This document shows positions 51,525 to 56,711 of a stretch of DNA of 64,000 nt, one piece after another (position 1 is the first letter of the stretch; every line of letters begins with the position of its first letter). The stretch lies in contig JBEGVZ010000019.1 of assembly GCA_041178085.1 (NCBI GenBank), positions 1-64,000 of the forward strand. The letters run 5' to 3'. The notes under the pieces are model-generated. The model had not been told where the DNA came from, did no database searches, and saw only the letters and a list, made by a program, of their open reading frames with translations. The translations under genes and the position numbers were made by a program. Source of the DNA: Pseudomonadota bacterium. Lineage in GTDB: Bacteria > Bdellovibrionota_B > Oligoflexia > Oligoflexales > RGVZ01.

Positions 51525-52532
51525 TCATTGCGTGAGGTGAGGGCGCCAAGGGGATGCACTGCGAAACGGCAGCACGGCATCCAGGTCCTGAACGCCTAGA
51601 ATACAAGCAAGCAAACGATCGAAACCAAGCGCGTTGCCAGCACAAGGTGGAAAACCGCGTGCCATCGCATCCAGGAAATCCGTGTCTTCAGGAACCTCGG
51701 GCAAGCCGATCAACTTGCGGCGGGCCGCACCCTCCCGGATCCGGGCCTGGTTGGCCTCCTTGCCGGGCAATTCGAAGAAGGCGTTGCTCAGTTCAACCCC
51801 GCCGGCGAACAATTCAAAACGCCGGGCGACGTCACCCTCAACCACAGCCAAAGCTGCCTGCGAAGCAGGATAGTCATGAAGGATGCAAAGCGGAAACTTT
51901 GCCAGGGCTGGCTCAACTTTCTCGATCAGCACCTTGAAAAAGGCTGTGTCGAAATCCTCGTCGCCCCGGATGGACACGACGCCCGCAGCCTTTGCCCTGG
52001 CCGCCAGTCCCGGATCAAGGTCAACCAGTTCAATGCCAGCGAATTTATTGAAGGCATCCTTGACGGAGAATGCTGGCACATCATCCGGCACCTCCATCCG
52101 CGCCTCACTTCCAAAAGCCCTGACCGCACCGCGAACAAGCTCGACAGATTCCTGCATGAATTCCCGGTAGCTGCTACCGCAGTGATACCACTCCAGCATG
52201 GTGAACTCCGGGTGATGCCAGGGGCCAAGCTCACCCATATTGCGAAAACAAGGGCCGATCTGGAAGATCTTGCGACAACCGGCCGCCAGCGCCTGCTTCA
52301 TGTGCAACTCGGGACTGCTCCGCAGGTAAAGCTTCTCACGCGCGCCGCCCAGAGATTCCCACATCGTTTCAAAATAGTTGAGATAAACCTCCGTGCCGGG
52401 CGTTCTTACCAGGCAAGGGGTTTCAATCTCGAGGTAGTTTTTACTGGAAAAAAATTCGCGCAATGCCGCGCGCAGGCGGGCACGCGACCTGAACAAGTCC
52501 ACCGCGTCCTTGGCCGCTCGCATTACGGTCAA
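51525..52532 (-). CDS. epmA: EF-P lysine aminoacylase (EpmA/GenX)
   Basis: Class II aaRS core without anticodon domain: LRSSPELHMK, FRN, HHPEFTMLEWY, RFELF..GVEL.N, ALGFDRL. Confidence 0.92.
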   Translation of the reverse strand: MTVMRAAKDAVDLFRSRARLRAALREFFSSKNYLEIETPCLVRTPGTEVYLNYFETMWESLGGAREKLYLRSSPELHMKQALAAGCRKIFQIGPCFRNMGELGPWHHPEFTMLEWYHCGSSYREFMQESVELVRGAVRAFGSEARMEVPDDVPAFSVKDAFNKFAGIELVDLDPGLAARAKAAGVVSIRGDEDFDTAFFKVLIEKVEPALAKFPLCILHDYPASQAALAVVEGDVARRFELFAGGVELSNAFFELPGKEANQARIREGAARRKLIGLPEVPEDTDFLDAMARGFPPCAGNALGFDRLLACILGVQDLDAVLPFRSASPWRPHLTQ

Positions 52533-55057
52533 CCCTTTTTGGCTGAGCGCGACGGGGCGCGGTCCTTCAACCGCTCACGATGGACGACCTCAAGGCGATC
52601 CATGGCCCGCTCCAGGGCAGACCCCTTGGAGAAAGGCGCCTCACGAAGGATTTCAACCGATGGCACGCCAAGATCGACGCCTGTGGCAATCTTGAACGCT
52701 GAAATCACGTCCATCACAGGAACGACGTGCAGGATGCCGGCCTCGACTGCCTTGCGCGCCTCGCGCGACAGCATCAAGTTCAAGGCATTCTGGCGCGGGA
52801 TAATGCAGGTGTAGGCACCTTTTTTAGACTTGTTGCGACCAATAATCTGGCAGGTCTTCCAGAAACCCTCGATCTTCTCGTTGACGCCACCGATCGGCTG
52901 GATCTGACCGAACTGATTCAAGCTGCCAGTCATGGCCACGCCCTGCCGCACAGGAATCCCTGAAATTGCACTCATGATCGCAATGAACTCTGCCAGTGTC
53001 GCGCTGTCGCCGTCGATCATGCCATAAGACTGCTCAAAGCAGATGCTTGCGGCCAGCCCCAACGGGCGTTTCTTGCCCAGCAGCGAATTGAGCAAGCCAG
53101 TCAGGATGAAGACGCCCTTGTCGTGGATCTTCCCGGACAGCTTGCTGGCCCGCTCTATGTTGACCACACCGTCGTGACCTGGAGCCGTGGTGCATGTGAT
53201 CCGGCCCAGTTTTCCAAAGGAATAATCGCCCATGTCGTAAACAGCGAGGCCGTTTACCTGGCCAATCACGTCTCCGTCGACGGAAAGCAGCAGGTCTTCC
53301 TGTCGCACCATGTTGAACAGGTTTTCTTCGATCAAATTGACACGGAAATACTTTTCGTCGAGAGCCTGCTCGACGTGTTTCCGGCTGACCGTCTTCGCGC
53401 CTTGCTCTCGCGCAATGTAATCCGCTTCAATGGTCAGGTCCTTCAATTCCCCAAACTGGGTCGACATGAAACGCTGGTCTTCGACCAGGCGGGACCCGTA
53501 CTCGACAATCGCGCCGATGGAGGACCGGTCAAACGGCAGGAGGTTCTCCACCTTGCTGCGGGTCGCAACAAAAGACGCATAAGACTCAATGTTGTCCTCA
53601 GACCTCTCCATCTTGTGGTCGAAGTCCGCCTTGATCTTGAAGATCTTGTGGAAGTCTTCATCCGCGTCATGAAGGATGTGATAGATGTCGTCATTGCCGA
53701 TCAGGATGACCTTCAAGTCGAGCGGGATTGGCTCCGGCCGCAGACCCGAAGTCGGCAGAAGTGAATACTGTTCCCCCATGTCCTCGATGTAGCCAAGCCG
53801 GTTCTTCAGAACGCGCTTGAGCGTTTCCCAGATCGATCCTTGCTTGAAAATATCCAGGGCATTAAGCACCAGATAGCCGCCACTTGCCTTGTGAACGGCC
53901 CCGGCCTTGATCATGGTGAAATCGGTCAAGTACATGCCGTGTTCGACGTTCTTCTCAATACGACCAAACAGGTTGTAATAGGTTGGGTTGGTCTCGATGA
54001 TGACCGGCGCACCCTTGGCATTGGTATTGTCGACGAAAACATTGACCCGGTAACGGCGGAAGCGGTCGCGCTCTTCAGGCGGCAGGAACATTTCCTGTAC
54101 CTGCTCCTGCTGGGGTTCGTCCGACTCGACGAAGTCCAGGAGGTTTTCCAGGATGTCGTTTTCAACATCCTTCAGGAACTCAATGATCGCAGCGTTGTCA
54201 GAAAATTCATGACGGACTGGATCCAATTGCGACGAGACCACCTGGCTGCCGATCTCGCTGCGCAGTTTCTCCACGTAATCCTTGGTTTCCTGCTCGATCG
54301 CACGGACCTTGCGTGCAAAATCCAGAACTTCCGGTTCAAGCTGCGAACGCCGGTCTTCAATTGCGTCGCGCTGTTCATCCGTAAGCTTGCCATATTCCTT
54401 TTCAGTCAGCGGACGACCGTCAAGGATGGGAATGGTCTCGATGCCCATGCGGGTTGACTTGATTGCGAAGTCGAGCGATTTTGCTCGTTTCTCCAGGTCG
54501 CTGAACAGCTTCGACTTGCGCTCGTTTGACGCGGACAAATATGCGTTGACCGCATTTTCGTAGTCCTCGCTTTGCAAGGCTGCCGTGATATCGGAACGCA
54601 GCGACTTGACAAGGTGCTCCATCGACTTCTTGATGCGCCGCCCCTCACCTGGCCCCATGCTGATGGCCCTGGGTTGCTCGGTCTGGGCAAAATCATAAAC
54701 ATAGATCCAGTCTTTCGGACGGGCGGCATCCGCCGACCAACGTTCAAGGAACGTCTTGATCACACTGGTCTTGCCGGTCCCTTGGATTCCGGCCACGTAA
54801 ATGTTGTAACCAGGCTTGCGAATGCCAAGTCCCATTTCGATCGCCCGGACCGCACGGGTCTGAGCAATGAACTCATGAGAAGTTTCGACGGTCTTGGTGT
54901 TGGCAAATTGGAAGGAGTCGTCAGGACAGGCAATGTACACCTGGTCCAGCCCGAGTGGGGCCGGCACGCCCTGTGCACGGGCAGGCGTCACACCAGCCCC
55001 GGGCTTGCGCCCGGGCTGTTTCCGCGGACGGCGACTTGCGGGAGACTTTCCTGCCAT
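52529..55057 (-). CDS. LonC-type (AAA_32/S16) protease
   Basis: GIQGTGKT, long coiled-coil insert, NPTY.NLFG.IE, catalytic DGDSA and GGVNEK. Confidence 0.9.
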   Translation of the reverse strand: MAGKSPASRRPRKQPGRKPGAGVTPARAQGVPAPLGLDQVYIACPDDSFQFANTKTVETSHEFIAQTRAVRAIEMGLGIRKPGYNIYVAGIQGTGKTSVIKTFLERWSADAARPKDWIYVYDFAQTEQPRAISMGPGEGRRIKKSMEHLVKSLRSDITAALQSEDYENAVNAYLSASNERKSKLFSDLEKRAKSLDFAIKSTRMGIETIPILDGRPLTEKEYGKLTDEQRDAIEDRRSQLEPEVLDFARKVRAIEQETKDYVEKLRSEIGSQVVSSQLDPVRHEFSDNAAIIEFLKDVENDILENLLDFVESDEPQQEQVQEMFLPPEERDRFRRYRVNVFVDNTNAKGAPVIIETNPTYYNLFGRIEKNVEHGMYLTDFTMIKAGAVHKASGGYLVLNALDIFKQGSIWETLKRVLKNRLGYIEDMGEQYSLLPTSGLRPEPIPLDLKVILIGNDDIYHILHDADEDFHKIFKIKADFDHKMERSEDNIESYASFVATRSKVENLLPFDRSSIGAIVEYGSRLVEDQRFMSTQFGELKDLTIEADYIAREQGAKTVSRKHVEQALDEKYFRVNLIEENLFNMVRQEDLLLSVDGDVIGQVNGLAVYDMGDYSFGKLGRITCTTAPGHDGVVNIERASKLSGKIHDKGVFILTGLLNSLLGKKRPLGLAASICFEQSYGMIDGDSATLAEFIAIMSAISGIPVRQGVAMTGSLNQFGQIQPIGGVNEKIEGFWKTCQIIGRNKSKKGAYTCIIPRQNALNLMLSREARKAVEAGILHVVPVMDVISAFKIATGVDLGVPSVEILREAPFSKGSALERAMDRLEVVHRERLKDRAPSRSAKKG

Positions 55058-55058
55058 C

Positions 55059-55766
55059 TCAGGTCAAGGCCACAGTGCCAACATTGAAGCCAATGGCCAC
55101 ATTGCGCCATTCCTCTGCCAGTTCAAACTCGGTTGCCGGCATTGCCAGCGATTGCAAAGCTGAACTGACCAGGCGCTGACCAGCGCCACCCGTACCCGCC
55201 TGGACCAGCATGTCGCCGTAGGCATCGATGAAATCGATCGCCTCTGCAACAGAGTCCCGGTTGATGTTCAGGACAGACAGGTCGAGGCCCTTTTTGAACC
55301 AAACGCCTAGTTCCTGAAGGTTCGCGCCGGACTTGACGCCCAGACGCACACAGTCACCGTAAATTGCCATCAGAATTTCGACCGGCAGGTTCGCCTCATG
55401 GCGACCCGCGAAATAGCCAAGGGTCTTGTAGGCGTTGCGCCAGTTCTTGCTCATCTGAAGGACTCGCACCTTTTCCATGGTGGCATCGTAGGCCTTCACA
55501 GCAGCATCGCGCTGTTGCTCGATCCTCTTCCGACGCGCGGCCAGATGGACCTGCATGCGATCCTCAAGATCGCCAAGCGCCTTTTTGGCATCGTCCAGGG
55601 AGATCACATCCTGCACGTCCAGCTCCCGGGACAGGGCCACCGCAAGGGCGTCCACCGCAACGGCAATCTGGGTCTTGGTCAGTTCCGCGATCTGAAAGAT
55701 CGTGAACTGGGCCCCGGCAGGCCACTTCTGTATGAAGCGTTCCAAAGCAAAAATAAAATCCAGCAT
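55059..55766 (-). CDS. Hypothetical helical protein
   Basis: GGAGGT RBS; stop lies 1 nt before the LonC start. Confidence 0.75.
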   Translation of the reverse strand: MLDFIFALERFIQKWPAGAQFTIFQIAELTKTQIAVAVDALAVALSRELDVQDVISLDDAKKALGDLEDRMQVHLAARRKRIEQQRDAAVKAYDATMEKVRVLQMSKNWRNAYKTLGYFAGRHEANLPVEILMAIYGDCVRLGVKSGANLQELGVWFKKGLDLSVLNINRDSVAEAIDFIDAYGDMLVQAGTGGAGQRLVSSALQSLAMPATEFELAEEWRNVAIGFNVGTVALT

Positions 55767-55897: not shown

Positions 55898-55956
55898 AAA
55901 AATAAAAATCTCCCCTGCCAGTCCGGCTCCTTGGAGCCAAACTGGAAAGGGAGATT
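55898..55956 (-). terminator. Long hairpin/terminator after the small basic ORF
   Basis: AATCTCCC..CCAGT..GGCTC CAAG GAGCC..ACTGG..GGGAGATT followed by TTTATTTTT; G-U pairs favour the minus strand. Confidence 0.75.
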
Positions 55957-55981
55957 GCCTTAAATTTAACCAGCGTACCGG

Positions 55982-56086
55982 TCAGACGGTCCTGAGTGAA
56001 CGACGCTTCTTCATCATGCGACGCTTCTTGCGACCAACTTTGCGGCGACCTTTGGGGTGTTTGCGGCGATGCCTTGATCCGTGCAC
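55982..56086 (-). CDS. Small Arg/Lys-rich protein, 34 aa (not in ORF track)
   Basis: GGAG RBS 6 nt before GTG; MHGSRHRRKHPKGRRKVGRKKRRMMKKRRSLRTV; own terminator. Confidence 0.75.
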   Translation of the reverse strand: MHGSRHRRKHPKGRRKVGRKKRRMMKKRRSLRTV

Positions 56087-56158
56087 AAATAACTCCACTA
56101 ACCATCGAGATCTTGAAAAATTACAGAACGCATTGGTTACTTGGAGTACCGGTAAATT

Positions 56159-56185
56159 TCAAGCTGGAAATCAGAAAGCCGACAA
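56159..56185 (+). promoter_or_regulatory. Putative sigma28 promoter of the HAMP gene
   Basis: TCAA(G)-N15-GCCGACAA. Confidence 0.6.
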
Positions 56186-56210
56186 CCTTTCAGGCAAGCA
56201 GGAGCAAGTC

Positions 56211-56711
56211 ATGACAGCACACCGGCCACGGCGAAAAAAACAATCGGTTCTGATCGAGCCGTTCAAGCAAATCAAGTTTGGACTCTATGTCCTCGGAATT
56301 TCTACGGCTTTTCTGTTTGCATCCGGCTTCCTGTTCGTTCGCGCCTTTCGCGACCAGTACGAGCATGTCATGGGCCTGTTCAACGTGGTGGACGAATCCA
56401 TGCAGTGGGAACTGGTCACCAACGACGTGTTCACCGCCAATGCGATCCGGATCGGGGTCCTTTACGCGGTTTACCTGGCCGTGCTGTTCGGCGTCATTTT
56501 CCGCCTCACGCACCGTTATTACGGGCCGCTTGTCTCGATCGAACGCTTTGTCGAGGAGATCAAGCGGGGCAATTATGCACAAAGGGTCCGGATCCGTCGC
56601 GGCGATGAACTTCACGGGCTGGTGAACTCCCTGAACGCCATGGCTGAACACCTTGAAAAACGCCACGGCAAAAACTCCCGGGAAACCAGGGAATCAAAGC
56701 ATCCAAATTGA
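56211..56711 (+). CDS. Two-TM HAMP-only membrane protein
   Basis: AGGAG RBS; two TM helices; HRYYGPL..I..F....GNY.....R.GDEL..L...LN.MA. Confidence 0.8.
   Translation: MTAHRPRRKKQSVLIEPFKQIKFGLYVLGISTAFLFASGFLFVRAFRDQYEHVMGLFNVVDESMQWELVTNDVFTANAIRIGVLYAVYLAVLFGVIFRLTHRYYGPLVSIERFVEEIKRGNYAQRVRIRRGDELHGLVNSLNAMAEHLEKRHGKNSRETRESKHPN

Follow-up and report, generated by a model that had tools for sequence, protein, structure and literature searches.

The closest described counterparts of the gene reported here are the tiny basic ribosomal proteins bS22, eL41 and bL37. According to the published descriptions, three types of bS22 have been confirmed structurally, and they are 19 % identical in a three-way comparison (PMC7797042, PMC12123416, PMC10618245). 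Going by the same sources, the bS22 proteins of Flavobacterium, Porphyromonas and Borrelia were discovered by cryo-EM only, are hypothetical or unannotated in databases and are nearly invariant within their lineage, and the one from Borrelia starts with GUG. In M. smegmatis, Lys16 of bS22 contacts h44 and the protein is dispensable for growth (PMC10081302). eL41 is described as a tiny basic helix in the same pocket as bS22 (PMC10618245), and bL37 of Actinobacteria as a tiny, basic protein encoded by a stand-alone gene (PMC10081302, PMC10618245). Sharma et al. (PMC10618245) predict that more such peptides exist, hidden by their short length and non-AUG starts.

We analysed a window of DNA, the whole stretch of 64,000 nucleotides, in which a sequence-only reading had pointed out a stand-alone gene for a 34-aa basic protein, with GGAG and a GTG start, in an apparent gap of about 440 bp. 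The gene was borne out on the minus strand, which the reading had left unstated, within a gap of 444 bp between a 235-aa hypothetical gene and a divergent HAMP-domain gene (Table 1). The composition given by that reading also held: the peptide (4.3 kDa, pI 12.0) has 11 Arg and 7 Lys, i.e. 18 of 34 residues, three His and no Asp or Glu. The hairpin with a U-tract, said to be strand-specific, could be confirmed. The 50 nt from 55956 to 55907, followed by a U run, fold at -37.9 kcal/mol (z -7.0) on the coding strand versus -29.3 kcal/mol on the other strand, and none of 200 shuffles folded as well as the coding-strand hairpin. Nine of the 11 Arg codons are CGY; the reading had been right that they are mostly CGC or CGT, but against the genome background of 58 % CGY the excess is not significant (p = 0.09).

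Table 1. Features of the small gene and its surroundings (positions in the window)
Feature	Position	Strand	Remarks
34-aa hyper-basic protein gene	55982..56086	-	GTG start 56086-56084, TGA 55984-55982
Shine-Dalgarno GGAG	56093..56096	-	6 nt upstream of the GTG start
Intrinsic-terminator-like hairpin and U run	55898..55956	-	folding energy and z score in the text
124-bp region in common with the divergent HAMP gene	56087..56210		promoter expected here
235-aa hypothetical gene, downstream (context only)	55059..55766	-	followed by a Lon-type protease gene and epmA
Divergent HAMP-domain membrane protein gene	56211..56711	+	ATG at 56211

The HAMP frame has no stop as far back as 55398 and thereby covers the 34-aa gene; gene callers may miss the small gene for this reason. 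A GTG at 56098, which would give 38 aa, was discarded as the start because it overlaps the Shine-Dalgarno sequence and because all 70 loci use the downstream position. A simple consensus scan of the region called neither a terminator nor a promoter, and the -10 element showed no clear positional peak upstream across the 70 loci. We infer that the small gene has its own transcript. In the RNA run X1 (8 % of words) coverage appeared only at 55041-55310, outside the small gene, at a depth of 2.7 and as contigs. In the DNA run X2 a contig from another organism matched the ORF only at 56019-56056, and its loose ends continue as related coding sequence.

Copies of the gene were recovered from all 61 relatives searched (E ≤ 1.4e-7), and 99 of the 104 genomes of the Oligoflexia phylum, the window's own genome counted, hold one strong copy (raw tally 100, with a chance row for G081 left out). 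These copies are 75-97 % identical, and the records that carry names assign the group to Oligoflexia (Oligoflexales, Silvanigrellales). Five genomes lacked a match. In G067 the contig ends just before the usual neighbour gene, and G081 is a fragmented genome with 86 % completeness; no copy was found in G111, which is 98 % complete. The last two, G061 and G062, form a separate family, the only one in Oligoflexia without the gene. Across the 70 loci read, the start codon lies at the same position in every case (38 GTG, 24 TTG and 8 ATG, so that 62 starts are non-AUG), 66 have an SD-like word no more than 16 nt from the start, and the peptide is 33-36 aa long. The alignment contains 15 invariant columns, including Gly, His and one hydrophobic position. 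Identity by codon position is 0.79/0.91/0.44, and pN/pS, pooled over the loci, is 0.19, pS being close to saturation. A downstream hairpin with a U tract was found on the sense strand in 39 of the 70 loci, on the antisense strand in 15 and after shuffling in three. In five genomes compared, identity to the window copy was 91, 88, 91, 79 and 76 %, versus 75, 68, 66, 63 and 59 % for uS9, so the peptide is the more conserved of the two in all five. Judged from these comparative data, the 34-aa ORF is a real single-copy gene; its near-universal single-copy occurrence and strong purifying selection within the lineage are as expected of ribosomal proteins.

The 235-aa gene adjoins the small gene in 54 of the 70 loci, and the order Oligoflexales keeps the arrangement HAMP gene, ORF, 235-aa gene and Lon-type protease. 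In the window, the downstream run conserved within the order (235-aa hypothetical, LonB-like protease, epmA) spans 51525-55766. Silvanigrellales-type loci have a different neighbour and arrangement, with rplM-rpsI facing the small gene in four of them. As gene order changes between the orders, the function is independent of the neighbours. This bears on whether the ORF could encode a leader peptide, acting by attenuation or arrest on the downstream 235-aa gene, Lon and epmA. A short ORF followed by a terminator does precede a same-strand gene run in those 54 loci, but the Silvanigrellales-type peptide is equally conserved though the next gene differs or lies on the opposite strand, and in other phyla and in phages the peptide has unrelated surroundings. 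The changing gene context largely refutes a leader function, which we regard as very improbable. In G061, a contig ends upstream of the homologue of the 235-aa gene with a highly repetitive frame of Lys/Ser or Gln/Glu (L159:2-293), at the place that the small gene occupies in Oligoflexales.

Pfam, NCBIfam, PHROGs and the PDB returned no match for the peptide or its alignments. The bS22 models PF08213 and NF047430 matched 0 of 51 members at E ≤ 10 and 0 of 17 peptides of the wider family described below, while the positive controls L110-L112 pass PF08213. Among the models of eL41 (PF05162), bL37 and other ribosomal proteins in Pfam and NCBIfam, the single hit was S8e at E 4.8 for one of 51 members. 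Foldseek with the predicted model gave no match. The top two named look-alikes in the ESM Atlas were eL41 (0.87) and a COX24_C cluster (0.85, with the family on 26 % of its members). Both are leads only; for eL41 the score is below 0.9 and the recognition score below the reliable range. One NCBI copy is annotated as 'hypothetical protein' (WWW13428.1), and many database copies are mis-started and have long N-terminal extensions. Literature searches that included spellings of the motif and covered openly accessible papers with few of their supplements found no description of the family; members may already stand, as families without a name, in supplementary lists of small-protein surveys.

In size and charge the peptide resembles bS22, which is about 30 aa long, highly basic and free of acidic residues; the values here are 33-36 aa and 53 % Lys and Arg. 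The bS22 of the PF08213/NF047430 type (Mycobacterium, Cutibacterium and deltaproteobacterial relatives) and mS38 have the same ~30-34 aa, ~53 % Arg and Lys and no acidic residues. The PF08213 type is likewise often unannotated, and in all but one genome tested the occurrence of the two is mutually exclusive. It differs in its GS[VI]IKK start, absent here, whereas the Gly-flanked GRRKxG core belongs to this peptide. The bS22 of Flavobacterium, Porphyromonas and Borrelia has a THK motif that this peptide lacks, and none of our profiles matched the PDB; the GTG start of the window copy is like the GUG of Borrelia. eL41 differs in being a single helix of 24-25 aa, and bL37 gave no sequence match. 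The same holds for bTHX of Thermus, which is also tiny, basic and encoded by a stand-alone gene.

No formal test placed the peptide in the bS22 family. HHalign against bS22 gave probabilities of 0.7-1.1 %, and the Oligoflexia peptides scored z -1.6 against 25 bS22 sequences, a score reached by 97 of 100 shuffles. In the published bS22 alignment we noticed by eye that a basic residue at 11, a hydrophobic one at 12, a small one at 13 and Lys at 16 are common to the three types. The corresponding register, K[VILM][AGS]xxK[RH], is present in 66 of the 70 loci; the motif was chosen post hoc, its register is ambiguous, and a slightly looser pattern was matched by 179 of 5000 shuffles (3.6 %). For the free 34-aa peptide without RNA, AlphaFold (AF2) predicted helices at residues 4-9 and 19-33 connected by a loop at 10-18 (pLDDT 81, pTM 0.36). 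bS22 is described as one bent helix, whereas the model has a loop of nine residues; for so short a free peptide, such a model is weak evidence. The differing types of bS22 are a precedent for unrelated-looking tenants of one pocket.

PF08213 exceeded its cut-off in three of the 104 phylum genomes (G061, G062 and G027). The first two, which are without the 34-aa gene, carry a canonical bS22 whose peptides match solved bS22 at E 5e-7. In the window's genome, which is 96 % complete, neither the bS22 HMM nor the short motifs of either bS22 type were found. G027 holds both genes. It is an 8 % contaminated bin in which bS22 lies on a 2.1-kb contig with a GC content equal to that of the bin, and this contig is likely, though unproven, contamination. 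In a sample of 201 genomes from the phylum to which G112 belongs, five carry the GRRK-core family and three others a bS22 variant, and none carries both. The variant, from three small genomes (L133, L134 and L135), reads HKRRM(W) in register with KKRRM; in L133 it scores below the NCBIfam cut-off and above that of Pfam. In the class of G112, 110 of 121 genomes are without a strong GRRK-core match and PF08213 matches 0 of 121, many relatives thus showing neither. The contrast seen in G061 and G062 is one phylogenetic event, and the replacement pattern reflects few independent events. A loose bS22 DNA pattern matched in 53 of the 104 genomes, about as often as its control. Among the 50 of 101 matches that were translated, bS22-like small ORFs came up only in G061 and G062 (G027 being already known); the other 51 were judged from the 27 matched bases.

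The window's genome contains a second unannotated basic ORF, of 40 aa, with a Shine-Dalgarno sequence and 53 % Arg/Lys (G000:C87:16452-16571:+, L155:2953-3072). It adjoins an ORF that, as read from the sequence, is transposase-like (L155:1838-2779). Copies of the 40-aa ORF, in which the motifs RxPRNRxKTA and SPHG never vary, turned up in 51 of the 104 phylum genomes; the searches of G061, G062 and 27 Silvanigrellales-type genomes gave none. It has no Pfam or NCBIfam match, and the K[VILM][AGS]xxK[RH] register occurs in 0 of 11 members. We take it as another candidate small ribosomal protein. Since it is conserved yet not found in G061 and G062, it could be a stand-in for bS22 and a rival tenant of its pocket.

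The 34-aa protein might then be ribosomal but seated elsewhere, in a cavity of the 50S subunit or the 30S head like bL37 or bTHX, with the 40-aa protein or nothing in the bS22 pocket. The core-gene conservation would be the same in this case, there is no significant similarity to bS22, and the N-terminal half, rich in His, Pro and Gly and non-helical in the model, is unlike the bS22 helix. The ESM Atlas lists a bL37-region cluster at 0.81, and the only PDB rows for wide profiles were the basic extension of uL3, at E 0.095-4.1 and not significant. Bacteria fill that site with the loop of their own uL3, and a seat elsewhere leaves unexplained both the bS22 swap in G061 and G062 and the bS22-like starts of some phage peptides (see below). 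We hold it to be unlikely. The uL3 chains 4v4n_AC, 9sra_BC and 6zu5_LB0 of the PDB share the string KGRRKV(GS) in their basic extension, without significance.

The earlier reading had called the protein lineage-specific, and this did not hold. Tiny basic ORFs with the core GRRK[VILM]GxKKRR are also present on viral contigs, in Planctomycetia, on SAR11-like contigs and in some Bacteriovoracia-like genomes. A 70 % identical copy is found in G112, whose record is titled Bacteriovoracaceae, and its phylum yielded strong copies in five of 201 sampled genomes, its class in 11 of 121. The Planctomycetia family, to which weak profile rows (E 3-10) gave the lead, comprises at least 185 clusters, part of which bear the names Pirellulales or Planctomycetia. 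Using a DNA pattern for GRRK-hydrophobic-G-x-KKRR, we obtained at least 119 metagenome and at least 120 IMG/VR stretches and read 80 of each. Peptides of 19-44 aa with at least 39 % Arg/Lys outside the pattern were encoded by 77 of the 80 metagenome and all 80 viral loci read, with a start codon in 74 and 80, respectively. The core is invariant in these peptides by construction; the small size, the charge and the upstream His are not. His two or three residues before the core was seen in 45 of 77 metagenome and 47 of 80 viral peptides, and in 0 of 25 planctomycete-type ones. The metagenome loci read include 40 on low-GC contigs, 25 of planctomycete type and about ten in phage-like DNA, and the neighbours of the 40 low-GC loci look like SAR11 genes, as inferred from sequence. 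All these groups are likely homologous with the window peptide, though for a motif so short and basic this is not proven. Searches of plasmids, GenBank phages and IMG/VR based on tblastn found nothing; as the plain pattern scan recovered at least 120 viral stretches, these blanks reflect low-complexity filtering or divergence rather than absence. A GTDB scan, with 34 of 402 candidates, was probably limited in the same way. The blastn search with one phage locus gave chance rows only.

The neighbours of the viral copies include DNA polymerase, helicase, terminase small subunit and phage endonuclease, and no ribosomal protein family was found among the 66 of 400 neighbour clusters scanned. By raw counts, a tRNA or tmRNA gene lies near 14 of the 80 phage loci, within 500 nt in ten and within 15 nt in five; those ten copies are always on the same strand as that gene, and 66 of the 80 loci have no tRNA nearby. 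Six copies adjoin tRNA or tmRNA genes at 8-15 nt (L304, L325, L377, L238, L310 and L340), three of them inside arrays of 8-13 tRNAs; L238 lies in a cluster of six tRNAs. The ten close neighbours would suit a non-stoichiometric factor binding RNA (the ribosome transiently, tRNA, tmRNA or another structured RNA) instead of a structural protein, as would the patchy occurrence in the G112 class (11 of 121) and the missing copy in the 98 % complete G111. However, near-invariance and a near-universal single copy in Oligoflexia fit a fixed pocket, and the bacterial loci have no fixed RNA gene neighbour, the clustering having covered protein neighbours. Such a factor seems rather improbable to us.

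Six of the 56 distinct phage peptides (L229, L205, L301, L309, L312 and L327) start with M[GS]S[VI]LKK like bS22 of the PF08213 type and then carry the GRRK core. These six alone exceed shuffles against bS22 (z 3.9), having been picked by their N-terminus and probably representing one or two lineages. They possibly bridge the bS22 and GRRK-core families. Phages are known to carry ribosomal proteins, including the small exchangeable bS21 and bL12, which are under purifying selection (PMC6375957). The likeness is that of small proteins carried by phages, and incorporation of GRRK-core peptides into ribosomes would be an analogy. That paper has 0 occurrences of bS22, and the GRRK-core family is without a PHROGs match.

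The sequence-only reading had offered a protamine-like peptide as its alternative, i.e. one which, like protamine or histone H1, would compact the nucleoid or phage DNA solely through its charge. The family is common in phages, and 53 % Arg and Lys with no acidic residues would suit such a role, but 15 invariant columns, with Gly, His and a hydrophobic position among them, and a length held at 33-36 aa point to a binding site of defined shape. The genome moreover has separate Ala/Lys-repeat peptides outside long ORFs (C97:32431-32532:- and C32:17899-18123:+), which we take to be of the histone H1-like kind. DNA condensation is therefore disfavoured and, in our estimate, improbable. A 55-aa basic ORF also lies outside long ORFs (C112:28352-28516:+).

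Our main reading, with a probability of about 0.5, is that the 34-aa protein is a small ribosomal protein buried in rRNA, probably in the pocket of bS22, mS38 and eL41. That it is ribosomal at any site we consider rather likely on indirect evidence, and this role is the best reading of a real gene without a database family; the earlier proposal of an undescribed small ribosomal protein therefore stands in this part, without its restriction to one lineage. Size, charge, fixed length, invariant Gly and His, single copy and non-AUG starts match rRNA-buried proteins that became known by cryo-EM only. As described in PMC10618245 and PMC10081302, bS22 and bL37 are comparable in size, charge, non-AUG starts and stand-alone position. 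The phage copies close to tRNA or tmRNA genes also speak for this reading, as do, as leads, the eL41 and COX24_C look-alikes. The bS22 pocket is suggested by the replacement of bS22 in G061 and G062, the phage peptides with bS22-like starts and the register basic-hydrophobic-small-x-x-Lys. The predicted site would be the 30S pocket at helices h44/h45, touching the 50S subunit. There the K-hydrophobic-G-x-K-K-R-R segment and the C-terminal helix would neutralise and clamp the phosphate backbones of the rRNA beneath the decoding centre and would steady the subunit interface, as described for bS22. Copies carried by phages would be exchanged into the ribosomes of the host, in the way demonstrated for phage bS21. 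As bS22 is dispensable in M. smegmatis, a knockout of the 34-aa gene may be silent.

We tentatively suggest that GRRK[VILM]GxKKRR marks a sequence class, the third and so far uncatalogued, of the decoding-centre peptide bS22/mS38/eL41. In Oligoflexia, some Bacteriovoracia, SAR11 and Planctomycetia its members would take the place of bS22 in the ribosome, and many phages of marine and freshwater habitats would carry them as a further virus-encoded ribosomal protein. Tiny basic proteins that lie buried in rRNA and escape annotation are already known in kind; what the GRRK-core peptides provide is a defined sequence family for the prediction of Sharma et al., open to direct test. If the suggestion is true, several large, mostly uncultured bacterial groups would have a component next to the decoding centre that is unlisted in family libraries, phages would carry versions of it, and the family would bear on how often the bS22 pocket was refilled in evolution.
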